Source of the DNA: Candidatus Omnitrophota bacterium | Lineage (GTDB): Bacteria; Omnitrophota; Gorgyraeia; Zapsychrales; Zapsychraceae | Direction of reading: 5' to 3' | Length of the DNA: 58,649 bases | NCBI GenBank assembly: GCA_015232535.1 | Contig: JADFZM010000003.1 | Location: 1-58,649 of the forward strand | Part shown: positions 1 through 19,338 of the stretch, one piece after another | Numbering within the stretch: position 1 is the stretch's first letter | Layout: every line of letters starts with the position of its first letter | Translations under genes and position numbers: made by a program | The notes under the pieces: model-generated | What the model was told of the DNA's origin: nothing | The model's database searches: none | The model's input: the letters and a program-made list of their open reading frames with translations, nothing else

Positions 1-3000
1 TACAAAGTTTTTATATTTTTCAAGAAGATTCTTCCTGCGGACAAGGATAATCCTTCGGCTAAACTTGAAAGTGCGGTGAAAGTGACAGAGGGGGCAGAGA
101 CTTTATTCGAAGGGAGGCCGGCGGGAGTAGAGATGGTCGATACTTTGATATACGGTCATCCAGCTCTTTGGCCGGTGTATAAAGAAGTTGCTAATAATCC
201 TATTAAAGGGAAGAAAGTCCTAGAGGGAATAGCTGAAGCGCTTCAATCTGAAAATTATTATGAGGTAATAGCGGAGATAAAGGAAGAGCTTGCTACTGAT
301 GGGGTAAGCGACAGAGTTGATGAAGAATATTTCTCGATACCGGAAAGGGAGAGCGGAACTCTAGGGATTCAGGATAAGGCGATGTTAAGCAGGTCTCATT
401 TATCAGATGAGGAGTTAGCTGTTCTAAGGGGTTCGGATGAAGAAGCCGGATTTATCTACAAGCGTGAATATGAAGAATCTCGTGTCAGGGGTCAGATAAC
501 AAATATCCAGGAAGCCCTGCGAATAACTAACTATGATGGGCGTAAGAGGCCGGAAGATCAAAATATCAAGGAAGCATTGATTGCTCTTGATGTTGATAAA
601 GTGATTGCGTGGATTGAAAGTCCTGAAGGAAAATTCAGCGGGCAAGAGGTCCACATATTGGATGGGGTTGGCCCGGACGCTAAGGCGATAGGGAGGCTTG
701 ACCGGAAAGTTGCCGAATATTATGGATTTCCCCACGAGACTGCGAACATTGTTATGATCGCGCCGGATGGAAATGTAATTGTACAGTTGCGTAATACCGA
801 TAGATTTGATGACCATCTGGGAATGTATGGCGGGCATTTGAAGGTGGGGTCAACTCATTATGAAGGAGCGCTGGCAGAAACATTGGAAGAGACGGGATTG
901 GCCTATCTGGATTTTAATCCATCCTTTGTGGGATATGAACATTACGCTATTGATGGAGATAATAATAAGGAACGCCGGTCATGGTTTGTTAAAATTTTGA
1001 CTCAAAGGGAGTATGCCAATATTGAAATAGAAGTTAACAGGCTAAAGACTTTGAAAGACCGATATACCCGCCTGGAGGTAAAAGAAATACTCTCCGAAGC
1101 AAGGGAGAGGGTCAAAGACGGTAAGAATGAAGTTGTCGGTAAGTATCTTATTCCTTTTGCAAAATTATTAAACGCTAAGAAGAAGACTTATGTCCTGGGG
1201 AAGATAAACGGAGCTATGCCGTATGAAAATAAGCCGGTCCGGTACTTGTATGTTAGGGACGCTTATCAGGGAAGAGTAAAGCGAATTATGGCATATTTTA
1301 CTCCGGATTCTTTGGACAGATTGTTTTCCGATGAAAATAAAGGCGACCTTTTACCTAAACTTGAACAGGCTGTCAATCAAGCACGACGAGTCATTGCCGG
1401 GATCGCCAAAGATTTAATTGATCGTGACGAAAAAGACGGAATAACCGTAGAGGCTGTTCAGAGAGCTTTACATAAAAAAAACACTATCGTTTTAAATTCA
1501 GGAATAGGGCGGGATCAGCAATCTTTAGCGGAGGAAGTTGTTCAAAAAGCGAATGAGGCAAGGGGTAGAAGCAAAAAGGGAATTGTAATAACTCTTATCG
1601 GAGGCGGTGGTACGGGAAAGAGTACAACGGCACAAGCTATTGCCAAGAAATTAAACGTTACAAATGTTTATGTTGGGCTCATTTATAGAGCTTTGGCTTT
1701 AGAAATACTAAAGGAAGGTTTCACTGCTGATGCTGATACTGTTGCAAAAGCTTTGGAAGAAACACCTCCTGGTTCCTCAAAAACAAGGGCGGCGATTATC
1801 CTAGAAAAGCTTGAGCTTATCTCGGATAATAATTTTAATCCGAGCATAACTTATAACGGTCAAGATATTAATAGTGAAATTGAAGAACGACGAGTCGACC
1901 TTGAAAAGGCAATGAGCGGAACAGCCTGGAGCCAAAATCTACACAAGCAGATAGCCCATTTCTGGCTTAAAACTGTTGAAGCAGAGGTCGCTCAGGGTAA
2001 AGATGTAGTCGTAGATCTGCGCCCTAAACAAGCCGAGTTGATAAAAGACAAGAAATTAACGGTTTATTTAACCGCAGATATTCTTATCCGGGCCGGCCGC
2101 CGGGCTAATGATAATATTGAATCTAAAGGCCTAAATAATACCGAGCAATCTTATGCATCTAGCGTTGTAGTTCCGGAGCAGGCCATATCGGTAGAAGACG
2201 TTTTGGCCCCGTACTATAACAACAAAGCAAGGGTTTATTTTGATGCCGAGCAAGCCAAGGTTGACAAAATGTGGGAAGGGGCTATAGGGTCCCCGCTTGG
2301 GGCATCGGTCGGTGTCCTTAGCCAGGAATTCTATGACTGGGTTCGTATTTCCTCGGGGGAAGGAGACAGGACCACCGGCGAATTATTCGCGAACTTCATT
2401 AAGGACCGCATTCCTGCCGAGTGGATAGAATCTCTTAAGACAGACAGGGATGCTTTCATTGAATTATTTCCCGGGCACATTGAACTAACGGAAGAAGAGA
2501 TTGTTAAAGATTATCCTAAGGCTAGCCTTCATCAAAGAAAGACGGAAATGGCTATCGAACAAATGTATGAGACCAAGAAAGGCCTTCATGCCCGATATAT
2601 TGTGGCCAATATGCCCGGGCGGTCATCCGTTGTTCAGTTGGTCGGGTTCCTTAAATTTATGGGGGTACCACATGATAAGATATTAATTCATCCCGAGCCA
2701 ACAAAAGAAGCAAAGATAGCATGGTATGAAAAGCTACTCGGGAAAGTAATAGACGAGGTAGATTCGATCGTTTTTATCCCGGTATCAAATGCCGATATTA
2801 GTCCTGCCCTGAATCCCAGCCCAGATAAGCAGTCTACGATCTACCCTTCTGAAAGCCAGCTTAAGATGAGGGTTAGTAATCAAACGGGCTTTGGAGGGAT
2901 TATCAAAGGAAAAGATGGCAAGAAAATTCTCGTGTTGAACATCCGTTCGATCTTTGGCGAAGCAACTAGTGATTTTGTAGATTGGCTTACACCGAAAGCC

Positions 3001-6000
3001 AAAAGTAGCGGACGGCTAAGAAAGATTGTTTTTTACGGTACGGCGGGGGCATTTAATTCTCCGGAGCCCGGGTCTATAAAGAAAAGAGTTGGTGATATTA
3101 TCGTTCCGGATCAAACTTCTATGGAGTTCTTTGACAGTGTTTTCGGCGGTCTTTTGTCATATGAAATAAGTTTTGATAATGCCGCGCTTCTAGCCAGACC
3201 ATTGACCCTGCATAAGATTGATATAGGTGATAAAGCTTTAAATGACTTTAATCAAGCTGAAAAAGAAATAATTGTTCAAGCTGTTAATGGGGTTTCGCTT
3301 ATTAAGCCGGAAAATGGCAAGCCGGTTTTAAATGCTACGACTGCTAATGTTGGAAACGAAACGGCCCGAATGGTTAGGCAGTTGCGCGGAAGCGGAGCTG
3401 AAGCGGCTGACATGGAGTTGTATTATTTGGTGAAAGGCATAGGTGAGATTAATGCTTCTCGCTCTTCAGGGGAAAAGATTCAGTTTTCAACAATGCTAAG
3501 AGTTGCAGATATTCCCGGAACTAAACAAGGAACGGATGCCAATATAAAAAGCCGAGATGATAGAGTTGTTAAGAAGATAAGAGAAATTATTAGTGACCAG
3601 GTTTTTACCTCCATAAGGGAGTTTTTTGATCAAGCCATGGTTCCCGATGGCATTCCAGTCTTGCCTTCGGGGAGTGACAGGGCTATGTTGGCTGATAAAA
3701 GAGATTTAAAAGAATACCAGGAAGTGGTTGCAAAGTATTCTAACAAGAAGAATAGCAAGGGGGAATTAGTCCCTAAAGATGTTAGCGGGGCTAGAATAAA
3801 GTTTGATGAAAAGACTTTAAAATCTTTGCCCTTTAGGGGAAACACGGTTGTTGTATGGTTTGATGAAGAAACAAATCAAAAATTTGTCGAGATAAAAAAG
3901 AGAATACAGGAAAAATTATCGCAACTGACTCGCCAGGACCATAAGCGCTATGGCGAAATGATGAATAAAGTGGCTTTTGTTGATGATAGATCATTTCATC
4001 TTACGCTTTTTGACTTAATCAATCCTGATGATTTTAGTAGCTTATCAGCTGAACAAAGAGAAATAAAAATTAAGGCAGTAAACGAGCAAATACGACAAGT
4101 CTTTGCTTCCTTGAGAGCAGAGGGTAGGCTGGCTCCTATTCAAGTAGGGGTTGACGCTTTAGGTTCATTTATGCCTTTTACGTATTCTTTACTAATTGCT
4201 TTGAGTACTCCCAGAAAACAAGAAGACCTAGATCGTATTAATTATATTAGAGAAGAAATAAGTAAAGCAACAGGGATTGTTTTGGCTAAGCCTTTTGTTG
4301 CCCATAGTACTTTGGGGTATATCGTTAATCCTATGAATGTTGAAGAGTATGCGGCGTACAAGAAAATTGTTGATGAGGTTATGGATGATCCGCAATTTAA
4401 GTTTGAGATTGAATTGGGTAACTTGGAATTACGTTTATTTGAGACCATGGATGATTATGGCGAAAATTCCGTTGATAAAGTTGATTTAGCGATGTATTCG
4501 GTCTTAGATATTAATGATCCCAAGAGTTCTGAAATTGCTTTGGTTGGAGGAAAGGCTGCCAGCTTAAAAGAGCTTGGCTCTATACCTGGGATCAGAGTTC
4601 CCGCCGGATTCAATGTTACAACGAAAGTTTACGCGGATTATCTGGAGCAGATCGGCGCTGCTCCCTATATAGCTAAACTTGAAGATTTCTCTGAACAGTG
4701 GAAAGTTCTTCCAGAGAATGAACCAGGCCGTGAAGCTCTGACAATTGAAATGCGCAGGTTGTCGGAAGAAATTCAAGCTATTATTTTAAGCGGAGAGATC
4801 CCCGAGGAGGTACTAGGTTTAATCTTGGAGTCATATAGAAGTTTGGATAAAGAAGGGCTGCCGGCCCTGGTTGCCGTTCGCTCTTCTGCAACAGCAGAAG
4901 ATATGCCAGGGGCATCATTTGCTGGGCAGTACAAGACTTATTTGAATCAGCAGGGTGATGCAAAGGTCATTGAGGCGATTAAGAAAGTTTGGGCTTCAAC
5001 CTACAATATGAACGCTATTGAATATCGTAACAAGCAGAATATGCAGCATAGTAAGAATAAAATGTGTGCGCTGATACTTGAAATGGTAAATCCCCAATCG
5101 GCGGGGACAGCGTTTTCTGTTGATACAGAAACAGGGGCGCCTTTTATAAGCCTTAATAATACATATGGTCTGGGCGAGGCAGAGGTTTCTGGCATCGTCA
5201 CGTCAGACACTTGGGTTATTGACCCGCAAACTAACACTATTCTCAAACGACGACTAGGCAAGAAAAACGTAAAGATTGTTTATGATCCCGAGAAAAGAGA
5301 GAATGTCATTTTGGAAAACTCTGAACGAGAAAGTAACAGATTCGCGATCAGTACTATTACGGCAAAAGAAATAGCAAGGCAGGTTAGAATTATCCATGAA
5401 CATTATACGAAGAAATCAGTAGATATTAAGTATATTGACGCAGAGTATGTCGTAACAAGCACGGGCGACGTTGTTTTTACACAAACTAGGCCGGAAACGG
5501 TCTGGGGAAAAGGCCGGGCAAAATTGTTAGCTGTAGATAAAGAGAAGGCAAGAAGTTATCCAGTTATTCTGGAGGGAGGGGTTACAGGCTCTTCGGGAGT
5601 GGCGACAGGAGTTATTAGAATTGTTCGTTCAGTAGAAGATGCCGCTAAATTTATTGAGCCAGGGGACATCATGGTCGCGCCCAATACAACCAATGTTTGG
5701 GAACACTCAATGGGGCTGGCCGGGGGCATCATTACAGAAGTTGGAGGAAATGGTAATCACACTGCTGTTGTGTCAAGAGAACAGGGAAAGCCGGCTATAG
5801 TCGGGAACTCTAATGCTATTGAAATACTAAAAGAATATGATAATCAGGAAGTCACTATAGATGCTACCTTAAAGAGAGTTTATTTAGGGGCGGTTCCTTC
5901 GGAATATTTCTATAGCCCTGATAAAATTCAGCCGCTTTATGGTGGCCTATACAGTGAAACCTTGGAGGATGGTTGGGAGGCCGCGAGTAAAACCGGGCAA

Positions 6001-8094
6001 ACTCATCTGGACTCAGAGGGAGGACGGTGGATTGGAAAGCCGAATGTTCCGGTCGGAGAATTTATGGGTATAATTTTTCAAAGAAATCATCGTTGGATTG
6101 CGGAACGATTAAAATCTCCTATTCGGGATAGATTTGAAAACAATATCTATCAAGTAAATTTCGAAGACATCTATCAATGGATGGAAAGGATTCAAGGCAT
6201 GAGCTTTGAGGAATTAGAGGCTATCCATATCGAAAAGATACAAACGATAAAAGAGTATTTAGAAAAAAGCAACGATCTTGAGTTGACAGAGGCGTCTATC
6301 CGCGAGTGGATAGATGTTTTTATTCGTATGAACGCCTATATGGGATTTGCATACAATTTTTATAAAATCACTGAAGGGATGCTGGAGGATGCTTTAAAGG
6401 AAAAAGCTATCCCTGAGCCATATTTTTCTCAGGTTCGACAAGGCATGAGTGTTATTTTTGGCGCGACAGAAGCTACCGAGAGATTAAAAGATTATAGAAA
6501 ACTTTTAGCCCTTTTAAGTAAAGACGGCGGTCAGCTTTTGAAAACATTGCAAGAGGCTTTGGCGGCCGGTAATTTTCTTGAGCTTGAAAAGTTATATCCC
6601 CAGTTCTATGAGTTACTTTTTTATCATGCGACTAATTACAAGGCTTCGAAAAGCATAGATGCTACTTTTTTTAGCGAACCTCCGCTTGCAGTAGTTGTTA
6701 AAGAGCTTATTCGTGATATCGAAGACAAAAGAATAATTAGAATCAATGAGCCGACTGCTGAGAATTTTTATCCTGATGACTACGAGTTTCAAAGGATTGC
6801 CCGGCTGGCTTTAATATCCGAGAAAGTTAGGCAGGATTCGCATCATATTAAGGCAAGAGGACAGTGGAAATTCGCAGAAGTTCTAAAACCGTTGGCGGTA
6901 TTCTTGATAGAAAAAGGAGAGATCGAGGCATTTGGAGATATTTTTGATCATTCTCCGGAGTGGATAATGGAAAAGGTCGCTGATTATGAAAAGGCGCGGC
7001 CGGCTGGAGATAAAGATAATCCCGTTTTTCATATTAAACCGTATGAGATACAGGATTTGATAGCAACTAATGATGATATGATCGGGAATGAGACTATTGA
7101 TGAAGCCATGCTTACGAGTATGGGTCGTTGGAAATTTGACTCAGTTCAGTGGATGGAGGCCTCAAGACAATTGGTACTTGTGAATGCTGCGCGCATAGAA
7201 GAGGTCGTTAAACCGGAATTCTTGGAAAAAGGACAGCATTCTTCTAGAGATATTGTTTTAACACCAAGAGAGTTGAATGATAAGGAGCATACCAAGATAG
7301 ATGGCCTTGCAGGTGGCCTAGGGATCGATAGTGCCAAGGTCATTGTTATTAAACTGGATCAGGTAGCGGCTTTTCATAGAATTTATGGGTTATATTCGGA
7401 TGGTGTTTTATTTATTAGAGAAGATATTCTCTCTGAGGGCAATCAGGATCAGATTAAAGAAGCCTTGGATCATTTGCGCTTAAAGCCAACAGGATTGAGT
7501 TATGAGGAATTAAAGAAGATCCAGTATCATGGGGACTTGAGAAGCCTTATAACGAAACTTTCTAATCGGACAATAAAATGGAAATTATTGTTTTCGTTGT
7601 ACGGCGAAAAGGAAGCAGAACTCTTGATGAGTGGGGTAACAGAGCAATCGATCAAAGACGCTATCATAAGGGCGATTTCGGAACAGTTGGGTGCCGCGAA
7701 ATTAGAATACCAAGAACAGGTAGCTCGTTTACGCAGCGATGCGCTATTTTACGATGGCGTAACAAGAGAGATGGTCAGGAATAAAGCGGGATTTATTCAA
7801 GCTGTCGATATTTTTAACAAAATGAATGATAGAGCAGTATTAGGTAAAGGCAAGATTGATAAGGCATCTTTATCCGATGTCGGAGGCGTTGATTTTAACA
7901 ATATTCGCGTAAACCGCATGGGTAATAACATCGATATTAAATTTAAACCCGCTCAAATGCAGGATATCCTTAATAATGGCATCGATGGTTTTGTCCCGGT
8001 CATTATTGATATAATTCCTCTTATGAATATTTTGCCAATCTTGGGCTTGGAGCCGGCGGATAAAGAGGAATTTAATGTGTCTAGTTTAAATTAG
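1..8094 (+). CDS. Giant multidomain protein, 5'-partial (at least 2697 codons in window). It is a fusion of Nudix-like, cytidylate-kinase-like, nucleoside phosphorylase/nucleosidase-like, 2H phosphoesterase and PEP-utilising (ATP-grasp + phosphohistidine swivel) domains, a long helical region, and a conserved 70-aa C-terminal module.
   Basis: The track ORF 76..8094 begins at a GTG. The same frame is stop-free back to nt 1 (YKVFIFFKKILPADKDNPSAKLESAV-KVTEG...) and no convincing RBS precedes nt 76, so the gene most likely starts upstream of the window. Domain motifs are listed as separate features. Confidence 0.9.
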   Translation, partial: YKVFIFFKKILPADKDNPSAKLESAVKVTEGAETLFEGRPAGVEMVDTLIYGHPALWPVYKEVANNPIKGKKVLEGIAEALQSENYYEVIAEIKEELATDGVSDRVDEEYFSIPERESGTLGIQDKAMLSRSHLSDEELAVLRGSDEEAGFIYKREYEESRVRGQITNIQEALRITNYDGRKRPEDQNIKEALIALDVDKVIAWIESPEGKFSGQEVHILDGVGPDAKAIGRLDRKVAEYYGFPHETANIVMIAPDGNVIVQLRNTDRFDDHLGMYGGHLKVGSTHYEGALAETLEETGLAYLDFNPSFVGYEHYAIDGDNNKERRSWFVKILTQREYANIEIEVNRLKTLKDRYTRLEVKEILSEARERVKDGKNEVVGKYLIPFAKLLNAKKKTYVLGKINGAMPYENKPVRYLYVRDAYQGRVKRIMAYFTPDSLDRLFSDENKGDLLPKLEQAVNQARRVIAGIAKDLIDRDEKDGITVEAVQRALHKKNTIVLNSGIGRDQQSLAEEVVQKANEARGRSKKGIVITLIGGGGTGKSTTAQAIAKKLNVTNVYVGLIYRALALEILKEGFTADADTVAKALEETPPGSSKTRAAIILEKLELISDNNFNPSITYNGQDINSEIEERRVDLEKAMSGTAWSQNLHKQIAHFWLKTVEAEVAQGKDVVVDLRPKQAELIKDKKLTVYLTADILIRAGRRANDNIESKGLNNTEQSYASSVVVPEQAISVEDVLAPYYNNKARVYFDAEQAKVDKMWEGAIGSPLGASVGVLSQEFYDWVRISSGEGDRTTGELFANFIKDRIPAEWIESLKTDRDAFIELFPGHIELTEEEIVKDYPKASLHQRKTEMAIEQMYETKKGLHARYIVANMPGRSSVVQLVGFLKFMGVPHDKILIHPEPTKEAKIAWYEKLLGKVIDEVDSIVFIPVSNADISPALNPSPDKQSTIYPSESQLKMRVSNQTGFGGIIKGKDGKKILVLNIRSIFGEATSDFVDWLTPKAKSSGRLRKIVFYGTAGAFNSPEPGSIKKRVGDIIVPDQTSMEFFDSVFGGLLSYEISFDNAALLARPLTLHKIDIGDKALNDFNQAEKEIIVQAVNGVSLIKPENGKPVLNATTANVGNETARMVRQLRGSGAEAADMELYYLVKGIGEINASRSSGEKIQFSTMLRVADIPGTKQGTDANIKSRDDRVVKKIREIISDQVFTSIREFFDQAMVPDGIPVLPSGSDRAMLADKRDLKEYQEVVAKYSNKKNSKGELVPKDVSGARIKFDEKTLKSLPFRGNTVVVWFDEETNQKFVEIKKRIQEKLSQLTRQDHKRYGEMMNKVAFVDDRSFHLTLFDLINPDDFSSLSAEQREIKIKAVNEQIRQVFASLRAEGRLAPIQVGVDALGSFMPFTYSLLIALSTPRKQEDLDRINYIREEISKATGIVLAKPFVAHSTLGYIVNPMNVEEYAAYKKIVDEVMDDPQFKFEIELGNLELRLFETMDDYGENSVDKVDLAMYSVLDINDPKSSEIALVGGKAASLKELGSIPGIRVPAGFNVTTKVYADYLEQIGAAPYIAKLEDFSEQWKVLPENEPGREALTIEMRRLSEEIQAIILSGEIPEEVLGLILESYRSLDKEGLPALVAVRSSATAEDMPGASFAGQYKTYLNQQGDAKVIEAIKKVWASTYNMNAIEYRNKQNMQHSKNKMCALILEMVNPQSAGTAFSVDTETGAPFISLNNTYGLGEAEVSGIVTSDTWVIDPQTNTILKRRLGKKNVKIVYDPEKRENVILENSERESNRFAISTITAKEIARQVRIIHEHYTKKSVDIKYIDAEYVVTSTGDVVFTQTRPETVWGKGRAKLLAVDKEKARSYPVILEGGVTGSSGVATGVIRIVRSVEDAAKFIEPGDIMVAPNTTNVWEHSMGLAGGIITEVGGNGNHTAVVSREQGKPAIVGNSNAIEILKEYDNQEVTIDATLKRVYLGAVPSEYFYSPDKIQPLYGGLYSETLEDGWEAASKTGQTHLDSEGGRWIGKPNVPVGEFMGIIFQRNHRWIAERLKSPIRDRFENNIYQVNFEDIYQWMERIQGMSFEELEAIHIEKIQTIKEYLEKSNDLELTEASIREWIDVFIRMNAYMGFAYNFYKITEGMLEDALKEKAIPEPYFSQVRQGMSVIFGATEATERLKDYRKLLALLSKDGGQLLKTLQEALAAGNFLELEKLYPQFYELLFYHATNYKASKSIDATFFSEPPLAVVVKELIRDIEDKRIIRINEPTAENFYPDDYEFQRIARLALISEKVRQDSHHIKARGQWKFAEVLKPLAVFLIEKGEIEAFGDIFDHSPEWIMEKVADYEKARPAGDKDNPVFHIKPYEIQDLIATNDDMIGNETIDEAMLTSMGRWKFDSVQWMEASRQLVLVNAARIEEVVKPEFLEKGQHSSRDIVLTPRELNDKEHTKIDGLAGGLGIDSAKVIVIKLDQVAAFHRIYGLYSDGVLFIREDILSEGNQDQIKEALDHLRLKPTGLSYEELKKIQYHGDLRSLITKLSNRTIKWKLLFSLYGEKEAELLMSGVTEQSIKDAIIRAISEQLGAAKLEYQEQVARLRSDALFYDGVTREMVRNKAGFIQAVDIFNKMNDRAVLGKGKIDKASLSDVGGVDFNNIRVNRMGNNIDIKFKPAQMQDILNNGIDGFVPVIIDIIPLMNILPILGLEPADKEEFNVSSLN
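700..1010 (+). other. Nudix-hydrolase-like domain within ORF1 (degenerate Nudix box)
   Basis: The segment IVMIAPDGNVIVQLRNTDRFDDHLGMYGGHLKVGSTHYEGALAETLEETGL (box at 829..900) resembles GX5EX7REUXEEXGU. The spacing is off by one and the box Arg is replaced by Ala (AETLEETGL). Confidence 0.55.
1576..2110 (+). other. Cytidylate kinase (CMK)-like P-loop domain within ORF1
   Basis: The Walker A motif is IVITLIGGGGTGKSTTAQAIAKKL (1600..1623). It is followed by VYVGLIYRALAL (compare CMK xDTGAMYRA) and a distal KLTVYLTADILIRAGRRAND (compare CMK FLTAsxexRAxRR). Confidence 0.7.
2920..3520 (+). other. Nucleoside phosphorylase / nucleosidase (PNP_UDP_1-like) domain within ORF1
   Basis: Three motifs fit this superfamily: KILVLNIRSIFGEA, IVFYGTAGAFN...VGDIIVPDQ (glycine-rich loop + GDxxV), and GAEAADMELYYL (compare the xDMEsaa motif). 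Confidence 0.5.
3840..4480 (+). other. 2H phosphoesterase (LigT / cyclic phosphodiesterase-like) domain within ORF1
   Basis: Two H-x-T/S-x motifs occur at the expected ~100-aa spacing: SFHLTLFDL (His codon 3997..3999) and VAHSTLGYI (His codon 4303..4305). Confidence 0.65.
4490..5510 (+). other. PPDK_N-type ATP-grasp (pyruvate phosphate dikinase / PEP synthase N-terminal) domain within ORF1
   Basis: The domain carries VGGKAASLKELGSIPGIRVPAGFNVTT and the near-canonical VAVRSSATAEDMPGASFAGQYKTYLN, and ends at FTQTRPETVW. Confidence 0.9.
5570..5890 (+). other. PEP-utilising enzyme mobile (phosphohistidine swivel) domain within ORF1
   Basis: Motifs are GSSGVATGVIRIV, GDIMVAPNTTNVWEHSM and GGIITEVGGNGNHTAVVSREQGKPAIVG. 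The putative phospho-His codon is at 5758..5760. Confidence 0.85.
7882..8091 (+). other. Conserved 70-aa C-terminal module (copy 1), shared with ORF2
   Basis: The sequence is GGVDFNNIRVNRMGNNIDIKFKPAQMQDILNNGIDGFVPVIIDIIPLMNILPILGLEPADKEEFNVSSLN-stop. It aligns with the last 70 aa of ORF2. Confidence 0.8.
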
Positions 8095-8182
8095 CTTTTA
8101 TACTTATTCTTCTTGGCACGAAGGCTTTTTCTAATATATACTTTCTTTATAATTTTAATTCCTATAACTATTTATATTAGAG

Positions 8183-8296
8183 ATGACATTTCACTTCCAA
8201 AATTTTAAATCCAACAAACTAAACAGGGGCTTAGGCTTTCTAGCCGCCTTCTTTCTAGTACTTGAATCCATTCTTTCTCCCGTTGCTTCTTATGCG
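8183..8296 (+). other. Sec-type signal peptide (or signal anchor) of ORF2
   Basis: In MTFHFQNFKSNKLNRGLGFLAAFFLVLESILSPVASYA|QS there is a basic n-region, a hydrophobic core and an A-x-A-like SYA site. ORF3 carries the same SYAQ junction. Confidence 0.7.
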
Positions 8297-11200
8297 CAAA
8301 GTGTTTATGATCTTCCGGCTGTAGGCGCTCAGGTTAATTTAAGCCAAAGCTTCGCCCCGGCGGTATTAAAAGGGATCAGGATCGACCCCAAAGAGCCGCT
8401 AAACTTTGATTTCATCGTCGATGCCGGCGATTCCGGATTAAAAGACGCGGAGTTAAAGAAAGAATCCGAAAAACTTATTAAATATTTCCTCGCCTCATTG
8501 ACCGTCCCTAAAGACGAGCTTTGGGTCAATTTATCCCCTTATGAAAAAGACCGCATAATCCCCGATTCGCTTTCCCAAACCGATATGGGACGCGACCTTC
8601 TCGCCCAGGATTATATCTTAAAGCAATTAACCGCGGCTTTGGTTTATCCGGAGGATGAACTGGGGGCAAAATTTTGGGAAGAGGTTTATTCTAAAGTTAA
8701 AACAAAATACGGCGCTAAAGACCTGCCGGTCAATACCTTGTCTAAGGTATGGATAATCCCGGATAAAGCGACTATATACGAGAAGAACAACACTGCTTAT
8801 ATCGTTGATTCCCATCTAAAGGTAATGCTTGAGGAGGATTATGTAGCCATGGATAAACAGAAAGCCATGGCGGAATCCCGCGATTCCTCGCGGGACAGTG
8901 ATTTACAAAGGACGAACGGGGAAATAAACAATATTCTGCGTTCGATCATAATCCCGGCAATTGAAAAAGAAGTTAATACCGGAAAGAATTTTGCTAATTT
9001 AAGGCAAGTTGTTAATTCTCTTATTTTGGCAACCTGGTATAAAACCAATTTAAAAGAAAGTTTACTTGGAAAAGTTTACGTCGATAAGAATAAAATATTT
9101 GGCATTGTTACCGCAGATGAGAATTTTAAAGAGAAAATATACAACCGTTATTTAGAAGCTTTAGAGGCCGGAGCAAGGAATTATATCAGAGAAGATTACG
9201 ATCCCAAGACTCGGCAGCTTGTTCCGCGCAAATATTTTGTTGGGGGATTAAACTTAGAAGGAATCGGATATCGCTCCTCTTCTGCGGACAATGAAAAAAT
9301 TAATCGTTTAAGCCCTGGGCCTGTATCAGAAATCAATCTGACTTTAAGAACGGATAGAAATATGCTTTCGGGGATCGAGAAGAAAGCCCCCGCATTAAGC
9401 CGGTTTAATGACCTTAAGATTGTTTCTTGGCAAAATGGAGCAATGATTGCCGAAGGTTATATTGATGATCCCAACGAAAAGATTTTGGTAAAATTACTGA
9501 CTGACGATTCTTTGAAAAATAAAAGAGAGTTTGCGGTTTATGAAGAATTACTTGCCCATGATTCTTCTTTAAGTTTTCTTGAATTATTTCCTTCATATGA
9601 AGGTCAGGCAGTTCTTGAATCTTCTGATTTAAATCTTCCTTTGTTTGCGGGTAAAATCGGCCTTAGTGAAGGAACAAAATATTTTGTTGTCAGAAAAGCA
9701 CAAGGGGTAAATATCAGAGAAAGAATCGTTGAATTAAAAGAAAAACTTCAAGGCGCTCATTCATTGGAAGCAGATGAACATGTTATCGGAGATTTATATT
9801 CGATTATAGATGCAATTAAAAGGCTTCATGCTAGAGGAATAATCCTAAAAAATCTAAGGGCTGATAATATATTAATTGATCCCCGAAAGAATTCGATTAC
9901 GATAGACGTAGTTTCATCTCTTTCCATCGCAGATGCCCATAATTCCGAAATAGATATTTATGGCGGGCAAAGAAAAACCTACCAACAGGGAAATAAATTG
10001 CTTTATTATGGAAAAGCCGATATAGAAAGTTTCGATGAAATAGCGTTATTGTACTCGGAAGGTTTATTAAGCTCAAAGTCTTCTTTAATATCGAGCTTGT
10101 CAAGCCTAAGGTTATCAGCGGCCGAGTTCTTTTATAAAACCAGCGACCCTTATGAATTATCCGAGGTAGTTCCATCAATAGGGGCTGATGAGATATTGCT
10201 TTTGTTGGCTAATAAAAGAAATAATATCGGTGTATGGAATCAATCCCGAAAGATAAGAGAATTAGGGGCAGAAAAAGGTGGAGAAGCGGTATTAGAGCTA
10301 AGAAAATTGTTAAATCCTTTAAAAACCCAGGAACCTCGCTTACGTTCGGCGGCCCTTGATGGTTTGATGGCGACAAATTCTCCATTGTCCGTTAGGGCAA
10401 TTGCCACCGCATTGAAGGATCCCGACCGTTTTGTTAAAAGATCGGCAGCCAGTTATTTGGGGAATTTTCCCAGAAGTAAAGTAGCGGTAAAGGCCTTGAT
10501 CAAGGCATTAGCGGACCCAGACAGCGCGGTTTTTGAGAATGCTCTTGATTCCATAAGTAAGATTGGAGACGAAGATACTATTGTTGAATTGAATATTCTA
10601 CGTTCGGGAGAGCCTAAGATAATGACGTTTTCAAGATTTGATGATCATGGAGGGATGATCAGATATACTAAAAAACCAGTTTACACAGGCTACAACGCCC
10701 AAAAATTGACTTATCAAGGAGAGGAGACCATTGAAAATCCCAGGGTCTCTCAATATTCTAAAACAATCGCAGATCTGCAGAGGAAATTAAAGGAGGAAAG
10801 ATTAAAAAGGAAAATCAATTTAGAAGAAGTTAAAGATAAAAGAATCCCAGCATTCTTCAAATGGCTTGAAGAAAAAGGCCTCGCAGATTATTTTGTTATA
10901 GTCGGCGGAGGCGTCCGCGATCTTTATACGGGAGAGATGCTTAACGATCTAGATATTGGAATAAAAGTAGAATTAACGGATGAAGAAAGGCTGCAGTTTA
11001 TAACTCCCATTAATCAGGCTACTGAAAGGGTTTGGCAATATTCAATGGATAAGCTAAAGTTATTGGCTGATGCCTTAGGTGAGGATGTAAATGTGTTCTT
11101 GCCGCCCCTTTTTGGGAAGAAATCAGTCTTCTGGAGCGATGGCAAGAACCCCACTATAGAAATACAATATACCGGCCCTATAAGACAGGTTGATTCAGAA

Positions 11201-13705
11201 GACGGCACTCCTATTTATATTAAAAGATCCTTATTTGATGAGAATGATCGTTCAGTCTATCTTACTAGGACCAATGCGGCGCTATTATCGACCGGGATTG
11301 ACTCTAGAGGTAACATTTATGGGAGGGTTAGCGCTTTTGATGATTTTGATAACGGTATCGCTCAATTAGCCGGAGATGGTGATAACTTTGATATAGGGGC
11401 CATAATGCGTTTTTTACGGCTCAAATATCAGTTCGGCTTGAAAATTACTCAGGATGATTATTCCTTGGTTCAAGAACAAATAAAGAGGTATTTATCGGAC
11501 GATTCGGAAATCCCCAGCGTTATAATTTATTTTGTTTTGAGCCGGCAGATAGAAAGGCTTCTTGCAACAGCCAAAGACAAAGATGCCGCGCATCTGGAAT
11601 TGGAAAGGCTAGGCATTTATAAATTATTGGACTTGGGAAAACACCGCCAAATAAAGCCGGAAGAAATTGAAGCTTGGGGATTGAATATTGCCCCGGCCTT
11701 AGAAGCGGCAATTATGGAAATTTCTGATATAAGAAAAAGTAGGCAGCGAGAAATATTAAAGTCCAGCTTATTGAATATATTAAATGTGCAAAGTAAGCCG
11801 ATAACGAAGAGGAGGCTTTTTGAGATTCTAAGGATTAATCCAGACTTTGCGAAAGTAAATTTCAGGGAAGTTCTTCAAACTATTGCTTATTATTCTATTT
11901 TAGCCAATCACATCTATTTACTAAGAAAACCATCTCTCTCTGACCTTGCGGAAGAAAGAGCTAATGCTGTGCCGGGATCGGGCGTGACAAATTCAAGATT
12001 ACGTTTTAGCATGGATGATGTCACAAATGTTATTATAAATCCTGAAGTATTAGAATATGATTTTGGTATAAGCTTCGATGAGTTGACTGATGAGGAGATT
12101 TTATTATTGGCTAAAACACCTTATCCCGCTATCGGGCAGACGCTAGGTTTGACTATAGCCGAAAATACCAAGTTAAACCTAAAGCAGTTATTGGAATTAT
12201 TGGAGATCAGGGATAATAGCCTAACAGAAATTGTCTTAGAGAATATTGTATCCAGGTTTAAAGGAGCTACTAATTTAAAAGATACGCTGCAGAGTAGGAT
12301 GCTGCTTATAAGAAATGAGCTAAGAGCTGCCCGTCTTTTGCGTTATGAATGGCTTAAGACTAATACGGATATAGTAGATAAATATAGCCTATCTTTTGTT
12401 GCTAATAATGAATATGCAGGGCTTAGAAATAAGGCCAAGAAATTTAAGGATGAAATTATTCTATATGCCAAAGCCATAGCCAAGCTGGACGGAAAAGACA
12501 CAGTTGTTCACGGTTCAGCGATGAATGTGGTTTTTAATCCTCTAGGTAATTTCCTGCCTCATTCATCAGCGCGATTAAATAGAAATATTGGCATGATAAA
12601 AATAGAGCAATTGCTGGATAAGGAATCAGAAATGGCACCTGTGTGGTCAAGATTAGACTCGGATGAATTATATTTATCCGAGAGAGAGGTCACTGGCGGG
12701 GATTCAGGAATAAATCAGGTCAGAGTCAAGAAATATATAAGGTATAGGGAAAGGAAGACCGGAAAGCTATACTATTCGACCCAATATGAAAAGGCCCAGA
12801 TGTTCTCGGTGATTTCCAGTTATTTGTTCTTTAGGTTGATCGGGCTACCAATCCGCCCGACATTTGTTTTAAGAAAAGAAGACGGAGAGCCGATTCTTTT
12901 AAGAGAGATAATTCACAACAGTTCGCCTTTGGACGAATACAAGATAGTTTTCGGCGAAGATGCTATACAATTTGCTTCCGTATGGAGGAGGCTGTTAAAG
13001 GGGGCGCTATTGGCGGACAATGTTCTGGGCCATCGCGGCCGGGGCCAAGACACTATTTCAATTATCACCAACGCGGATGGCTCGAAAAAACCCTTTTTTG
13101 ATGAAATGAGAAGTGCATTCGGGATTCCCGATGTTATTGATGATAAAATCCCTATTAGCGAGCAGGTAAATTATAATTTCTCCGATAACGTTGTTTCGCT
13201 GCCGGACCGGCAGGTAACGGCAGGAGTATCCGGGCTTTTCCCCGATGAATTATCAGCAAATCCTTATCAATCTAAGGCCCGGCATGCTGACCTGGCCTGG
13301 ATGGCAGGATATTTAAAGCAGGTAACCCCTGAACAATTGCGGGGAATTTTGGATTACGCGAATAAAGCTGTCCCGAATAATGGATTGGATGTTGAGGCGA
13401 TTTTTATGGAATGGCAAAAGGCTTTAGATAAAGTCCGGGAGATATATCCGGATAAAGCGCAATTATCCAACCGAAATTCTCAAGAGACCCCCGGCGGTAT
13501 CGACCTGAATCCGGATAATATAACGATGGATATTAAATCCGATGGGTTAAAGCCGCGCTTTGAGTTCTCCCCCGATATCCTTGAAGCTTATCCAATAAGG
13601 GGGTTTGAGCCGGTCATTATCAATATCTCTCCCATAAACAGCCTGCCTTTATACTTAGGGATCATTAAGGCAGAAGGCGAGATGAGTATAAGCCGCCTTA
13701 ATTGA
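8183..13705 (+). CDS. Giant secreted or membrane-anchored multidomain protein (1840 aa). It has a signal peptide, a conserved N-module, a pseudokinase-like domain, HEAT repeats, a CCA/polyA-polymerase-type nucleotidyltransferase, ~680 aa of unassigned sequence, and the conserved 70-aa C-terminal module.
   Basis: This is one long uninterrupted ORF whose ATG follows an 88-nt AT-rich spacer after ORF1. Domain motifs are listed separately. Confidence 0.92.
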   Translation: MTFHFQNFKSNKLNRGLGFLAAFFLVLESILSPVASYAQSVYDLPAVGAQVNLSQSFAPAVLKGIRIDPKEPLNFDFIVDAGDSGLKDAELKKESEKLIKYFLASLTVPKDELWVNLSPYEKDRIIPDSLSQTDMGRDLLAQDYILKQLTAALVYPEDELGAKFWEEVYSKVKTKYGAKDLPVNTLSKVWIIPDKATIYEKNNTAYIVDSHLKVMLEEDYVAMDKQKAMAESRDSSRDSDLQRTNGEINNILRSIIIPAIEKEVNTGKNFANLRQVVNSLILATWYKTNLKESLLGKVYVDKNKIFGIVTADENFKEKIYNRYLEALEAGARNYIREDYDPKTRQLVPRKYFVGGLNLEGIGYRSSSADNEKINRLSPGPVSEINLTLRTDRNMLSGIEKKAPALSRFNDLKIVSWQNGAMIAEGYIDDPNEKILVKLLTDDSLKNKREFAVYEELLAHDSSLSFLELFPSYEGQAVLESSDLNLPLFAGKIGLSEGTKYFVVRKAQGVNIRERIVELKEKLQGAHSLEADEHVIGDLYSIIDAIKRLHARGIILKNLRADNILIDPRKNSITIDVVSSLSIADAHNSEIDIYGGQRKTYQQGNKLLYYGKADIESFDEIALLYSEGLLSSKSSLISSLSSLRLSAAEFFYKTSDPYELSEVVPSIGADEILLLLANKRNNIGVWNQSRKIRELGAEKGGEAVLELRKLLNPLKTQEPRLRSAALDGLMATNSPLSVRAIATALKDPDRFVKRSAASYLGNFPRSKVAVKALIKALADPDSAVFENALDSISKIGDEDTIVELNILRSGEPKIMTFSRFDDHGGMIRYTKKPVYTGYNAQKLTYQGEETIENPRVSQYSKTIADLQRKLKEERLKRKINLEEVKDKRIPAFFKWLEEKGLADYFVIVGGGVRDLYTGEMLNDLDIGIKVELTDEERLQFITPINQATERVWQYSMDKLKLLADALGEDVNVFLPPLFGKKSVFWSDGKNPTIEIQYTGPIRQVDSEDGTPIYIKRSLFDENDRSVYLTRTNAALLSTGIDSRGNIYGRVSAFDDFDNGIAQLAGDGDNFDIGAIMRFLRLKYQFGLKITQDDYSLVQEQIKRYLSDDSEIPSVIIYFVLSRQIERLLATAKDKDAAHLELERLGIYKLLDLGKHRQIKPEEIEAWGLNIAPALEAAIMEISDIRKSRQREILKSSLLNILNVQSKPITKRRLFEILRINPDFAKVNFREVLQTIAYYSILANHIYLLRKPSLSDLAEERANAVPGSGVTNSRLRFSMDDVTNVIINPEVLEYDFGISFDELTDEEILLLAKTPYPAIGQTLGLTIAENTKLNLKQLLELLEIRDNSLTEIVLENIVSRFKGATNLKDTLQSRMLLIRNELRAARLLRYEWLKTNTDIVDKYSLSFVANNEYAGLRNKAKKFKDEIILYAKAIAKLDGKDTVVHGSAMNVVFNPLGNFLPHSSARLNRNIGMIKIEQLLDKESEMAPVWSRLDSDELYLSEREVTGGDSGINQVRVKKYIRYRERKTGKLYYSTQYEKAQMFSVISSYLFFRLIGLPIRPTFVLRKEDGEPILLREIIHNSSPLDEYKIVFGEDAIQFASVWRRLLKGALLADNVLGHRGRGQDTISIITNADGSKKPFFDEMRSAFGIPDVIDDKIPISEQVNYNFSDNVVSLPDRQVTAGVSGLFPDELSANPYQSKARHADLAWMAGYLKQVTPEQLRGILDYANKAVPNNGLDVEAIFMEWQKALDKVREIYPDKAQLSNRNSQETPGGIDLNPDNITMDIKSDGLKPRFEFSPDILEAYPIRGFEPVIINISPINSLPLYLGIIKAEGEMSISRLN
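8297..9247 (+). other. Conserved ~320-aa N-terminal module (copy 1), shared with ORF3
   Basis: Long runs are identical with ORF3: KLIKYFLASLTVP, WVNLSPYEKDR, MGRDLLAQDYILKQLT, LVYPEDELG, SHLKVMLEED, IEKEVN.GKNFA.LRQ, NLKESLLG, PRKYF.GG. Confidence 0.85.
9420..10060 (+). other. Protein-kinase-like domain of ORF2, probably a pseudokinase
   Basis: ILVKLL matches a VAIK-like Lys and FAVYEEL matches the alpha-C Glu. The catalytic-loop region LHARGIILKNLRADNILID (9826..9880) aligns to HxxGixHRDLKpxNILxD, with HRD replaced by LKN (catalytic Asp to Asn). TIDVV sits at the DFG position. Confidence 0.55.
10250..10595 (+). other. HEAT / PBS-lyase-type repeats in ORF2
   Basis: The segment LRSAALDGLMATNSPLSVRAIATALKDPDRFVKRSAASYLGNFPRSKVAVKALIKALADPDSAVFENALDSISKIGDEDTI shows the repeated (A/L)L.DPD..VR..A pattern. 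Confidence 0.7.
10840..11460 (+). other. tRNA nucleotidyltransferase / poly(A) polymerase family head domain (PolyA_pol-like) in ORF2
   Basis: YFVIVGGGVRDLYTGEMLNDLDIGIKV (10889..10966) matches the GGxVRDxLLGxxxxDxD signature. The downstream IMRFLRLKYQFGLKI matches the RxxRFxxxxgF helix motif. Confidence 0.8.
13493..13702 (+). other. Conserved 70-aa C-terminal module (copy 2), shared with ORF1
   Basis: The sequence is GGIDLNPDNITMDIKSDGLKPRFEFSPDILEAYPIRGFEPVIINISPINSLPLYLGIIKAEGEMSISRLN-stop. Confidence 0.8.
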
Positions 13706-17613: not shown

Positions 17614-17809
17614 TGATTAATAGGTGAACCGTAGTGGAAAAGGAGGCTCACAATAAAAAGCTTCTTATATATGCTGGTTCTTATTGCTCTTTTTTTAACG
17701 TTAATATTTGATTTTGCAAAAAGCGTTGCTGGAATTATATACAGGCTGGAAGGCGGCATTGCCCTAAAAGATGCGGCTTTTTGGTTGATTTAAAAACAAA
17801 ATATGAAAG

Positions 17810-18532
17810 ATGAAAATGAAAAGATTTATTAAAATGATGTTGTTCTTCGCAGTGGCTTTTACTCTCGCAGGTTGTTATTCAACCGGGCTTTCATTAAGGG
17901 AAAAAGGAAGCTTCAATTATTCAAATTTTATCTATGGTTTATACAATAGAAATGATTCAAAGGCTGAAGCTATAAAGAAGGTTAAAACTCCGATAAAATT
18001 GGCAGTAGCGCAGGTGGGCGAGAATACCCCGCCGGATATCATGGTAAAGATGCTGGAGAAAGAGGGCTATCTTGTTTCCGAGGTTATGGCCCTGCCGGCA
18101 GGAGGGAATGATATAGATTATTACAATAATGAAAGAAAATCAGGCTCCCAGGAGATCGAGAACAGGATGGATAAAATGCGGCGATTGGCCAAGGATTTGG
18201 GCACCGATTACATTTTTCTCTTCGGCGGTTCATCTGATATAGGGACTTCTTCAAACTGGCTTGGGTTTTTTGATATCACGATTGTCGGAGCTTTTGTAAT
18301 CCCCAGCCAGAAAATAACAGCCGAGGGGCGGGCGGCAGGGGCGCTTGTGGAAGTTGAAAGCGGTAAAGTAGTCCTTACCGTAAATTCCGAAGACAGCAAA
18401 ACCGCTTACGCGTCATCGGCTAATTTATCCGGCCAGCATGATGCGGTTTTGATATCGATGAGGAATGACTTAGTGGATCGTTTAAGCAAAGAGTTGATAA
18501 AAAAGCTCAGTTTTTACAGCGGGGATATTTAA
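17810..18532 (+). CDS. Putative lipoprotein, unknown function
   Basis: MKMKRFIKMMLFFAVAFTLAGC has a lipobox (L-A-G-C). I recognise no catalytic motif. Confidence 0.7.
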   Translation: MKMKRFIKMMLFFAVAFTLAGCYSTGLSLREKGSFNYSNFIYGLYNRNDSKAEAIKKVKTPIKLAVAQVGENTPPDIMVKMLEKEGYLVSEVMALPAGGNDIDYYNNERKSGSQEIENRMDKMRRLAKDLGTDYIFLFGGSSDIGTSSNWLGFFDITIVGAFVIPSQKITAEGRAAGALVEVESGKVVLTVNSEDSKTAYASSANLSGQHDAVLISMRNDLVDRLSKELIKKLSFYSGDI

Positions 18533-18824
18533 AATGAAGAAGTTTCCTTATTTAAATTGAACGTCAATGCTGATATTATGTTCAAAGGCCGAGAGTGAGG
18601 AATTAAAATACATGAATACAAATGGCGACCCGTTTTTTGCAAAAGAGGCTCAAAAGAGGCTTGAAGAATTTAATGATTCTCGTGGTATTAAAAGTTGTCA
18701 AAAAGCTTTACTTGAGTTCAGGCATAATTAAGAGGTTGGTATCAAGCAGTCAAAACAGTAAGATCATAGGAAAAAGCATTTTTAATTAGGTAATGATAAA
18801 AAAATTACTAAAAAGGAGGGAACT

Positions 18825-19286
18825 ATGTTAGCTAAAAAATTCGCATTGGGGTTTGGCATAGCGGTTCTTTTACCGATGGTGGTCCATTACGGGGTTAGCA
18901 CTTTTAACCCGGCACCCAAATGGAGAAATTATTACCAATATGAATATTACAACAATTACGAGGAAGAAAAGAACGCGTCTCCGGAGGAGAAGGCTAAAAA
19001 GCAGGCGGAAATACAAAAGAAAGACGAGGATTATAGAAAGGCTCAGAACTCTTTCGGAAAAAGCCTATTTCTTGTCGCGATCCCCGTAGGATTGGCGGCG
19101 ATTATCTTCGGCTCGCTTACCGCGGTGCAGGCTATCGGAACCGGGCTTATGTTTGGAGGGATTTTCACGATAATCGACGGTTATTGCTGGTATTGGTCGG
19201 AATTACAGGATTGGATGCGGTTTGTTTCTTTGCTTGTTGCTTTTATTGTGCTGATTTATATCGGCTACCGAAAAATGGCAAAGTAA
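18825..19286 (+). CDS. Hypothetical membrane protein (about 4 TM segments with a Tyr/Glu/Lys-rich loop)
   Basis: A strong RBS (AAAGGAGGG) sits 5 nt before the ATG. The protein has hydrophobic segments and a charged loop, NYYQYEYYNNYEEEKNASPEEKAKKQAEIQKKDEDYRK. Confidence 0.65.
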   Translation: MLAKKFALGFGIAVLLPMVVHYGVSTFNPAPKWRNYYQYEYYNNYEEEKNASPEEKAKKQAEIQKKDEDYRKAQNSFGKSLFLVAIPVGLAAIIFGSLTAVQAIGTGLMFGGIFTIIDGYCWYWSELQDWMRFVSLLVAFIVLIYIGYRKMAK

Positions 19287-19338
19287 AAAGACGGTGTGTT
19301 TTTCATAATCGAAGCTACTATTCTGAGGGGAGGGTTAG

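Follow-up and report, generated by a model that had tools for sequence, protein, structure and literature searches.

An Omnitrophota open reading frame as a probable member of a modular carrier family: enzyme cassettes in a conserved frame, with D-x-A-M preferentially marking their junctions

We analysed 58,649 nucleotides (nt) of DNA from Candidatus Omnitrophota bacterium (assembly GCA_015232535.1, contig JADFZM010000003.1, positions 1 to 58,649), a stretch referred to below as the window, and in particular its first open reading frame, ORF1 (1..8094, + strand, like all the ORF1 features given below), in which a first-pass annotation had recognised five enzyme domains acting on nucleotides or RNA ends. 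Omnitrophota are ultra-small bacteria, most of them host-dependent. ORF1 is a single uninterrupted frame with its stop codon at 8092-8094; translated from its first start codon, a GTG at nt 76, it encodes 2,672 amino acids (aa), and upstream of this GTG the frame contains no stop back to nt 1. Its copy in the public protein collection (P0001; P-numbers label ORF1 and related proteins, and L-numbers the family loci) is a partial protein of 2,697 aa, the gene-caller product extending to nt 1. Because the frame is open to nt 1 and the database product is partial, the 5' end of ORF1 is probably cut by the contig edge. The reading that we favour, with moderate confidence, is that ORF1 is a probably 5'-truncated member of a family of Omnitrophota modular carriers, in which shuffled enzyme cassettes marked by a D-x-A-M motif (DxAM) stand between conserved ends, and that such carriers would be exported, their cassettes working as separate enzymes.

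In a full-length Pfam scan of ORF1, five enzyme domains were found in the order that had been claimed (Nudix, CMP-kinase-like, PNP/MTAN-like, 2H phosphoesterase and dikinase): NUDIX at aa 220-309 (E 1.8e-4, 21.9 bits for a cut-off of 21.1), Cytidylate_kin at aa 505-687 (E 2e-16), PNP_UDP_1 at aa 979-1119 (E 0.02), 2_5_RNA_ligase2 / 2H-phosphodiest at aa 1242-1445 (E 1.5e-4 / 6e-4), PPDK_N at aa 1488-1817 (E 9.3e-83) and PEP-utilizers at aa 1860-1931 (E 4e-17). The weak calls strengthen when isolated cassettes are scanned together with their homologs, and profile searches back all five domains, that of PNP_UDP_1 through its homolog in P0009. The motifs quoted in the first-pass annotation also lie where it had placed them, the degenerate Nudix box exactly at nt 829-900. 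The region that it had assigned to the domains (700-5890) does contain them; ORF1 is longer, however, and the annotation had omitted about 100 residues that precede the Nudix cassette and about 740 downstream residues, made up of a helical domain, a further cassette (E) and the C-terminal tail.

The Nudix cassette (385..1386, aa 104-437) contains the Pfam NUDIX domain at nt 733-1002. The isolated module scores 25.6 bits on PF00293 (gathering cut-off 21.1), the four homologous modules all match this family (best 8e-8), and a profile of the cassette retrieves AtNUDX1 and ADP-ribose pyrophosphatase structures from the PDB at about 5e-4. Its box, GGHLKVGSTHYEGALAETLEETGL, keeps the three Glu of REUxEE and is followed by a coiled insertion. 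It departs from the canonical GX5EX7REUXEEXGU, reading G-x5-S-x7-A-E-T-x-E-E-x-G-L in ORF1, so that the Arg and the first (upstream) Glu are replaced; in addition, the first Glu of the EE pair is a Gln in three of the four aligned Nudix cassettes (the three relatives). Because canonical residues of the box are replaced, the enzymatic activity of this cassette must be considered uncertain.

The following cassette (1387..2220, aa 438-715) carries the Cytidylate_kin domain at nt 1588-2136, with a P-loop (GGGGTGKST, 1600-1626), a GxIYR motif (1675-1695) and a lid (IRAGRR, 2086-2103). The P-loop, GxxYR (GLIYR) and the lid RxxRR of CMP kinases (CMK) are kept, and the module reaches 60.8 bits on PF02224 (cut-off 26) vs. 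only 50.8 bits on TIGR00017, whose equivalog cut-off is 135.55. The GRD(I/M)G of true CMK is replaced by L-R-P in ORF1, and the C-terminal nucleoside-monophosphate-binding region (RDxxDxxR…PL) is absent; four aligned CMK-like modules from long proteins likewise lack GRD and this C-terminal region. The ORF1 module is therefore classified, from its motifs, as a CMK-like kinase rather than a true CMK. A conserved small helical element (…IAKDLIDRDEKDGITVEAV… / …ISDRDARDGFSDADLE…), located at 1387-1515 of the window (aa ~438-480), was also observed to flank the CMK-like cassettes on either side in P0013, P0015, P0016, P0021 and P0034.

Cassette X (2221..3627, aa 716-1184) combines a conserved N-terminal alpha/beta part with a probable PNP_UDP_1 domain (nucleoside phosphorylase / MTA-SAH nucleosidase superfamily; nt 3010-3432) and displays the motifs FYGTAGAFN (3031-3057), GDIIVPD (3091-3111), DMELYY (3409-3426) and RVADIP (3499-3516). 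PNP_UDP_1 (PF01048) reaches 14.7-17.8 bits in ORF1 for a cut-off of 25.1, vs. 31.7 bits for the cassette X of P0009, which is 32-35% identical and aligns with positions 43-224 of the 233 in the profile. FYGTxG, DMEL and [AS]D are conserved among the homologs, and the whole unit of about 455 aa is also present in P0008 and P0009. Searches of cassette X against PDB chains, including with a three-sequence profile, gave nothing useful, and neither did a direct search with the 2H cassette. An AlphaFold2 (AF2) model of cassette X built from the three-sequence alignment had a predicted local distance difference test (pLDDT) score of 45.5; Foldseek returned no match at E<=0.001, its top matches being MTAN/UP/PNP with E>=0.015, and they were not counted as evidence.

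The 2H phosphoesterase cassette (3688..4482, aa 1205-1469) exceeds the cut-offs as an isolated module (30.4 bits vs. 27 on 2_5_RNA_ligase2, PF13563; 24.5 bits vs. 21 on PF08975). Its two motifs, HLT (3997-4005, H1308-L-T) and HST (4303-4311, H1410-S-T), are invariant in eight sequences, and standalone proteins of 237-265 aa align with it end to end. It shares the two H-x-T motifs, the profile cut-offs and the size of the 2H phosphoesterases (LigT / 2'-5' RNA ligase superfamily; PF08975, DUF1868); unlike known 2H proteins, it forms part of a carrier, in which a dikinase is fused to its downstream end.

This dikinase cassette (4495..7098, aa 1474-2341) comprises a PPDK_N ATP-grasp domain (nt 4537-5526) with a conserved RSSATAED motif, a swivel phosphohistidine domain (nt 5653-5868) whose His1895 (nt 5758-5760) lies within GGNGNHTAVVSRE, and a helical domain of about 400 aa (5911-7098). 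PPDK_N and the swivel His are common to phosphoenolpyruvate (PEP) synthase/PPDK and to their non-pyruvate offshoots (rifampin phosphotransferase, the prodigiosin ligase PigC, plant glucan-water dikinase). In ORF1, in contrast, the helical domain after the His domain occupies the place of the PEP/pyruvate TIM barrel: PF02896, the model of this barrel, has no match in ORF1, though every true PpsA hit has one. The cassette also falls below every NCBIfam equivalog cut-off (341.9 bits vs. 598 for NF005057), and its profile matches indicate that the ORF1 dikinase is not a PEP synthase. Standalone proteins of 879-899 aa (P0167, P0169) equal the dikinase plus its helical domain. Their N-termini carry a signal- or lipoprotein-like sequence of their own (…VGMSCS…), and this ATP-dependent dikinase therefore seems, from these N-termini, to be extracytoplasmic even off the carrier.

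Cassette E (7111..7827, aa 2346-2584; MGRWKF…FIREDILSEG…EALDHLRLKPTG…) has no Pfam or NCBIfam match; NCBIfam has no model for cassette X, for cassette E or for the N-domain and tail described below. In nine long relatives (P0010, P0157-P0164) the dikinase is succeeded by this cassette, which is missing from P0165/P0166 and from the standalone P0167/P0169.

A check of the catalytic residues found the motifs largely present, with the exception of the Arg and first Glu of the Nudix box and of the GRD and C-terminal region of the CMK-like module. These losses, together with a PNP_UDP_1 match that stays under threshold in ORF1, would be expected of a structural or adhesive coat protein in which catalytically dead enzyme folds serve as bulk, binding modules or decoys, and published views of Omnitrophota giant proteins do emphasise adhesion and coat roles. 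However, the HxT pair is invariant, and the swivel His, RSSATAED, the P-loop, the lid RxxRR and the PNP EME-like and [AS]D motifs are conserved. Moreover, a phosphoglycerate kinase (PGK) carried as cargo by three proteins of the family matches Pfam at 2.7e-107, which speaks for an enzyme function maintained by purifying selection. We hold a coat protein of this kind to be very unlikely.

The distribution of the cassettes was obtained from an exhaustive HMMER search with ORF1 aa 481-1475 against 1.84 billion (1.84e9) representatives. The CMK-like cassette was found in P0013, P0015, P0016, P0021 and P0034, and the 2H cassette in P0010, P0011, P0012, P0017, P0018, P0020 and P0055. Apart from ORF1, no protein of this set is matched by two or more of the CMK-like, PNP-like and 2H cassettes, each of which otherwise occurs alone in proteins of 1-7.6 thousand aa (kaa). 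The first-pass annotation knew of no single chain combining the five domains, and the combination is indeed unique to ORF1 in the databases searched. In P0011, 2H and Nudix cassettes are found in reverse order relative to ORF1. Cassettes equal whole standalone enzymes, such equivalents having been seen for 2H and for the dikinase. The sole recurring block consists of 2H, dikinase, helical domain and cassette E, and is present in P0157, P0158, P0010, P0161 and P0162. The dikinase-E pair is also found with a NAGPA-like domain (P0159) and with UDPGP (P0160), and P0165 has the dikinase and helical domain with CofD, without cassette E. P0157 is organised as N-domain-2H-dikinase-E-tail (55% identity, 99% coverage), and ORF1 looks like a P0157-type protein with an insertion of Nudix, CMK-like and X cassettes. 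An assembly chimera was ruled out, as the 2H-dikinase-E-tail junctions recur on independent contigs.

A search with full-length ORF1 missed most of its relatives because of a word filter, and searches with sub-regions recovered them. The full-length search yielded four relatives of 2.4-4.3 kaa with differing enzyme sets: NDK and glycogen synthase; PGM, transaldolase, IMPase and NUDIX; HEAT; and ankyrin. Among 22 complete family members (loci L004-L069), the metabolic cargo includes PGK, enolase, GAPDH, PGM, UDPGP and phosphoribosyltransferases, to which are added SNF2 helicase, PP2C, GDPD, GNAT and HEAT repeats. One family member carries a SMODS-associated NUDIX. Since the cassettes shuffle separately and diverse enzymes ride on the carriers, the cargo of the family is combinatorial and of the cytosolic housekeeping type.

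These distributions bear directly on the model of the first-pass annotation, in which ORF1 would be a single-chain assembly line degrading or remodelling one nucleotide- or RNA-end-derived substrate, as in conflict or RNA-repair systems. All five families do act on nucleotides or phosphoesters, with their catalytic motifs largely kept; at least five proteins join 2H to the dikinase, a linkage that may be functional, and the SMODS-associated NUDIX points in the same direction. However, the Nudix, CMK-like and X cassettes are each found without the others and recur singly with unrelated partners, 2H and Nudix stand in reverse order in P0011, the CMK-like module lacks the CMP-binding motifs, and cargo of glycolytic, sugar-phosphate, helicase and repeat types is borne on this frame as well. 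In addition, a PADLOC scan gave only trivial P-loop matches (E ~0.005-0.01), and the window neighbours are ordinary chromosomal genes of the housekeeping type (ACR3, an Aas-like fusion, histidine kinases, PEPCK, a DEAD helicase, a PabB-like enzyme and SulP); membership in a defence system was ruled out on these two grounds. No tRNA-splicing or RNA-repair partner (kinase/ligase, RtcB, Pnkp/Hen1) was found in ORF1 or in the window. We therefore regard such an assembly line as quite unlikely. Because ORF1 belongs to a family that mixes self-contained enzyme cassettes, its five enzymes are probably not one dedicated pathway. The other suggestion of the annotation, a nucleotide-scavenging machine for a host-dependent cell, would be compatible with the Omnitrophota origin and with the export signals of the family. 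One of the neighbours, at 19339-22785 (+) of the window, encodes an LplT-Aas-type lysophospholipid recycling fusion of 1,148 aa, in which an MFS transporter and an acyltransferase are joined to an AMP-binding enzyme.

The frame common to the family consists of a Sec-type signal peptide, a conserved N-domain of about 355 aa, a variable cargo and a conserved C-terminal tail of about 55 aa. The signal peptide and N-domain are shared by P0002, P0003, P0005 and ORF2. Judged by eye, the N-termini are Sec-signal-peptide-like (the n-region is basic, the core hydrophobic, and x-[YF]-A|Q is present), and the N-domain is marked by WVNLSPYE…AQDYILKQ…PRKYFSGG. The tail follows the consensus GGIDxN…FDPA…GFxPVIINIxP…LLGL, in which the PVIINIxP…LLGL stretch is hydrophobic. 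It ends most of the complete members with an N-domain, and most tail-bearing proteins have this domain, P0160 and P0004 being without it. Members range in size from the N-domain alone (401 aa), through N-domain with transmembrane (TM) segment and tail or with NUDIX, to more than 4,000 aa. Neither Pfam nor NCBIfam has a model for the N-domain or the tail, and when the N-domain was modelled with AF2 (pLDDT 69.6), the PDB offered no match (best E 0.35). With an N-domain profile, at least 581 confirmed loci were found in GTDB species genomes, several per genome; the titles of nearly all name Omnitrophota, Omnitrophica or metagenome-assembled genomes of 'uncultured Planctomycetales'. At E<=1e-20, the relatives of the N-domain number at least 1,427 proteins, all unannotated. 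The carrier family is thus Omnitrophota-specific and paralogous.

ORF1 carries the family tail at aa 2603-2672 (7882..8091), with GGVDFN…FKPAQ…DGFVPVIIDIIPLMNILPILGL and an acidic end. By tblastn it matches tails in about 30 loci with E down to 4e-23, the tails having also been compared in an alignment of 51 sequences, and like the family tails it lies within about 70 aa of the stop. The sole strongly hydrophobic segment of ORF1 is in this tail (PVIIDIIPLMNILPILGL, nt 7987-8049); a hydropathy scan found no internal hydrophobic segment in ORF1, ORF2, P0002, P0005, P0008, P0159 or P0160. Downstream, ORF2 (8183..13705, +), a sibling carrier of 1,840 aa, has a signal peptide, the N-domain, a kinase-like region, HEAT repeats (3.7e-10) and the same tail. 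Its protein-kinase-like stretch (aa ~480-575) gives weak matches to Pkinase and to PADLOC PD-T4-6, and it also contains a weak PolyA_pol/CCA-type nucleotidyltransferase (NTase) motif (VIVGGGVRDL…DLD, E 0.13). ORF1 and ORF2 are tandem members of this lineage-specific carrier family, and the gap between them contains a promoter-like TTGGCA-18-TATACT (8113-8142).

The N-terminal side of ORF1 starts with a segment, N1 (76..372, aa 1-99), that has no Pfam or NCBIfam match and no homolog among the sequences compared or in JGI metagenomes; it is possibly the end of a preceding cassette. A scan of the JGI metagenomes with N1 peptides for a longer copy of ORF1 found no relative. An alternative start, ATG at nt 133, is preceded by AGGAG 5 nt upstream. 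If ORF1 were complete from this ATG, it would be a signal-less protein that its tail attaches to the membrane from the inside, a cytoplasmic metabolon scaffolding nucleotide-salvage enzymes. Such a protein would make sense of a tail that is the only hydrophobic segment, the cytoplasm suits ATP-dependent enzymes, and P0160 and P0004 show that members without N-domain exist. However, 44 open codons separate ATG 133 from the contig edge (estimated chance ~0.07 at this base composition), no promoter-like site was found in nt 1-400, and the gene-caller product reaches nt 1. Moreover, P0157 and P0159, which are closest to ORF1 in its C-terminal 1,470 aa (aa 1201-2672), both start with a signal peptide and the N-domain, as do most tail-bearers for the latter. 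We thus consider a cytoplasmic tail-anchored metabolon unlikely.

Between the enzyme modules of the relatives, a short motif recurs in the form D/N-x-A-M-L/T. In 81 family proteins (152,253 aa), 146 D-x-A-M were observed vs. 15.8 expected, and 200 shuffles of these proteins gave a mean of 16.1 (standard deviation 4.1, maximum 29). An Asp stands at position -2 of 40% of the A-M dipeptides of the family, i.e. a 6.2-fold enrichment, and the two residues after the motif are hydrophobic, then small. The motif occurs at 0.96 per kaa in the family and at 1.87 per kaa in ORF1 (5 sites in 2,672 aa), vs. 0.11 in ORFs outside the family at these loci and 0.15 elsewhere in the window; the family thus stands about 8-fold above the neighbouring genes. 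The Asp of the motif is encoded by either of its two codons and the Ala by any of its four. Because synonymous codons vary in this way, DxAM is selected at the protein level and not as DNA, and a DNA-level repeat or recombination site was ruled out on the same basis.

In ORF1, an independent homology block starts within 5 aa of four of the five sites. D-K-A-M (373..384, aa 100-103) immediately precedes the Nudix cassette, whose homology to P0002 and P0003 begins at aa 103-104. A linker (3628..3687) contains two motifs, D1185QAM (3628-3639) at the end of cassette X and D1201RAM (3676-3687), next to which the 2H homology blocks of P0010, P0011 and P0017 begin (aa 1203). D-L-A-M (4483..4494, aa 1470-1473) precedes the start of the NCBIfam PEP-synthase alignments at aa 1475-1476, and D-E-A-M (7099..7110, aa 2342-2345) stands at the start of cassette E, where P0157, P0158 and P0159 have DDAM. 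A variant, D-R-A-V (7828..7839), is found just upstream of the tail. Over the whole family, a DxAM occurs within 60 aa after the N-domain in 28 of 74 cases and within 30 aa before the tail in 15 of 60, and the median spacing is 296 aa. Cassette junctions are thus preferentially marked by D-x-A-M-(hydrophobic)-(small).

The invariant Met of this motif (ATG) falls at cassette starts, near where standalone homologs begin, and DxAM might for this reason be seen as internal translation starts giving separate cytoplasmic enzymes. A Shine-Dalgarno-like sequence, however, is no more common ahead of the DxAM ATGs (14%) than ahead of the remaining internal ATGs (12%), whereas genuine starts have one in 36-58% of cases, and the conserved Asp, the Ala and the hydrophobic and small residues after the Met point to selection on the peptide. 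Internal initiation at DxAM, extremely improbable in our view, was rejected for this lack of enrichment.

P0009, a TM-rich protein of 4,526 aa from another class, contains 14 R-[ASP]-E-x-R vs. 0.29 expected, which suggests a second system of junction motifs. Its cassette X is bracketed by R-[ASP]-E-x-R (aa 1149 and 1621) in place of DxAM. Because the same cassette is flanked by different motifs in ORF1 and in P0009, the boundary motif is specific to the carrier and not inherited with the cassette, as expected of a processing recognition site or at least of a selected linker. In P0002, an internal copy of the tail opening motif (RGGIDMNTISPVSMDEAMT) is observed at a cassette junction (aa ~1545-1570) and is directly followed by DEAM, which hints at a functional link between the GGIDxN element and DxAM.

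According to the carrier reading that we favour, the signal peptide would export the protein and the C-terminal tail would anchor or sort it, the cassettes then working as separate enzymes outside the cytoplasm of the producer rather than as a five-step line. As several cassettes are ATP-dependent, the most sensible sites of action would be those where ATP is available, i.e. lysate at the cell surface or the cytoplasm of a host or prey; extracytoplasmic cassettes acting in a host or prey would agree with published descriptions of Omnitrophota, in which they are nanobacteria that depend on hosts or are predatory. DxAM would be a flexible hinge or linker or, alternatively, a proteolytic processing site. 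A stronger version, which we put forward as tentative and somewhat doubtful, is that DxAM are cleavage sites and the carriers true bacterial polyproteins, exported by Sec and cut into free cytosol-type enzymes, such as kinases, nucleosidases and glycolytic enzymes, at the surface or in the host or prey. Cleavage of ORF1 would then yield one unit made up of Nudix, kinase and nucleosidase, along with a 2H esterase, a novel dikinase and cassette E, and the second class of carriers would use R-[ASP]-E-x-R as its site.

Several points weigh against this interpretation. The signal peptides and topology were assessed by eye and by hydropathy scan rather than by a dedicated predictor. The N-terminus of ORF1 itself probably lies beyond the contig, and ATG 133 with its AGGAG would allow ORF1 to be complete, cytoplasmic and without a signal. 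Kinases that depend on ATP would also require a source of it outside the cytoplasm. With respect to processing, no protease was identified in ORF1 by the Pfam scan, and the N-domain matches no PDB fold and none of its His, Ser or Cys residues is invariant, which leaves a protease role for it unsupported. No protease or secretion gene recurs beside 79 family loci, where only response regulators (14) and sensor-like genes do. Many family members have no DxAM, among them ORF2, in which only variants are present (TDRNML, QNGAMI), and the 2H-dikinase junction is without the motif in P0157, P0158 and P0010. Finally, functional coupling could still explain the nucleotide theme of the ORF1 cargo and the repeated pairing of 2H and dikinase.

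As regards the neighbourhood of the family loci, a response-regulator gene of about 390 aa lies a few kb upstream of the carriers in 14 of the 79 loci (e.g. L037, 5629-6811), and a sensor-like gene of 623 aa recurs in 7. This recurrence may be a regulatory link, or chance given the many paralogs.

The class of architecture to which ORF1 belongs has already been described in two preprints, as the 'Archaeovorins', giant Omnitrophota proteins of up to >85 kaa (West-Roberts et al. 2023, bioRxiv 10.1101/2023.11.21.568195), and as the 'multi-enzyme metabolic cluster' class of proteins of at least 10 kaa (Nielsen & Lui 2026, bioRxiv 10.64898/2026.06.07.730766). As in ORF1, many distinct enzyme Pfams tile one polypeptide in the same phylum, and the domains listed there include NUDIX, PPDK_N, PGM, starch synthase and HEAT repeats. 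Most of these proteins have a signal peptide and/or TM segments, and one of the preprints suspects post-translational cleavage, the cleavage points being called not known in that of 2023 (bioRxiv 10.1101/2023.11.21.568195). They differ from ORF1 in usually having many TM helices, whereas ORF1, with at least 2,697 aa (~2.7 kaa), has no internal TM segment and is below their size range. Neither preprint mentions a conserved N-domain, a C-terminal tail or a linker or cleavage motif, and we found no description of the carrier frame and its punctuation. At locus L001, a gene of 14,390 aa precedes P0002 (1-9696), with no DxAM in the 3,232 aa of it that were examined, and P0002 is followed by toxin-antitoxin genes (HEPN/NTase, MazE/PemK, Gp49/HTH; 17654-20942).

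More distant systems also present some of the features of the carriers. In MARTX toxins of Vibrio and its relatives, conserved ends frame shuffled effector domains, which are cut at short inter-domain sites after export. These toxins are the closest functional analogy to the carriers, as both frame a variable cargo of autonomous domains. However, ORF1 has neither RTX or glycine-rich repeats nor a cysteine protease domain (Pfam scan, E<=1), the carriers have a Sec-type signal and not a type I secretion system, their cargo consists of housekeeping metabolic enzymes and not of known toxins, and their cleavage is putative. Viral polyproteins and the eukaryotic multi-enzyme polypeptides CAD and AROM likewise hold several complete enzymes in one frame, and viral polyproteins have a short recurrent site between units. 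In contrast to the carriers, whose cargo is combinatorial, CAD and AROM catalyse consecutive steps in a fixed order; no protease was identified in ORF1.

The ORF1 locus thus offers a smaller and tractable version of giant multi-enzyme proteins, with a defined frame, discrete cassettes and a statistically solid junction motif. DxAM makes processing and its sites a directly testable proteomic question, and it supplies rational boundaries for dividing giant proteins for structure prediction and expression. An uncharacterised dikinase family is also brought to light, with a helical substrate domain, a constant partner in cassette E and a repeated association with a 2H phosphoesterase. For the biology of this predatory or episymbiotic lineage, the finding puts forward a puzzle, namely the presence of export signals on glycolytic and nucleotide enzymes.

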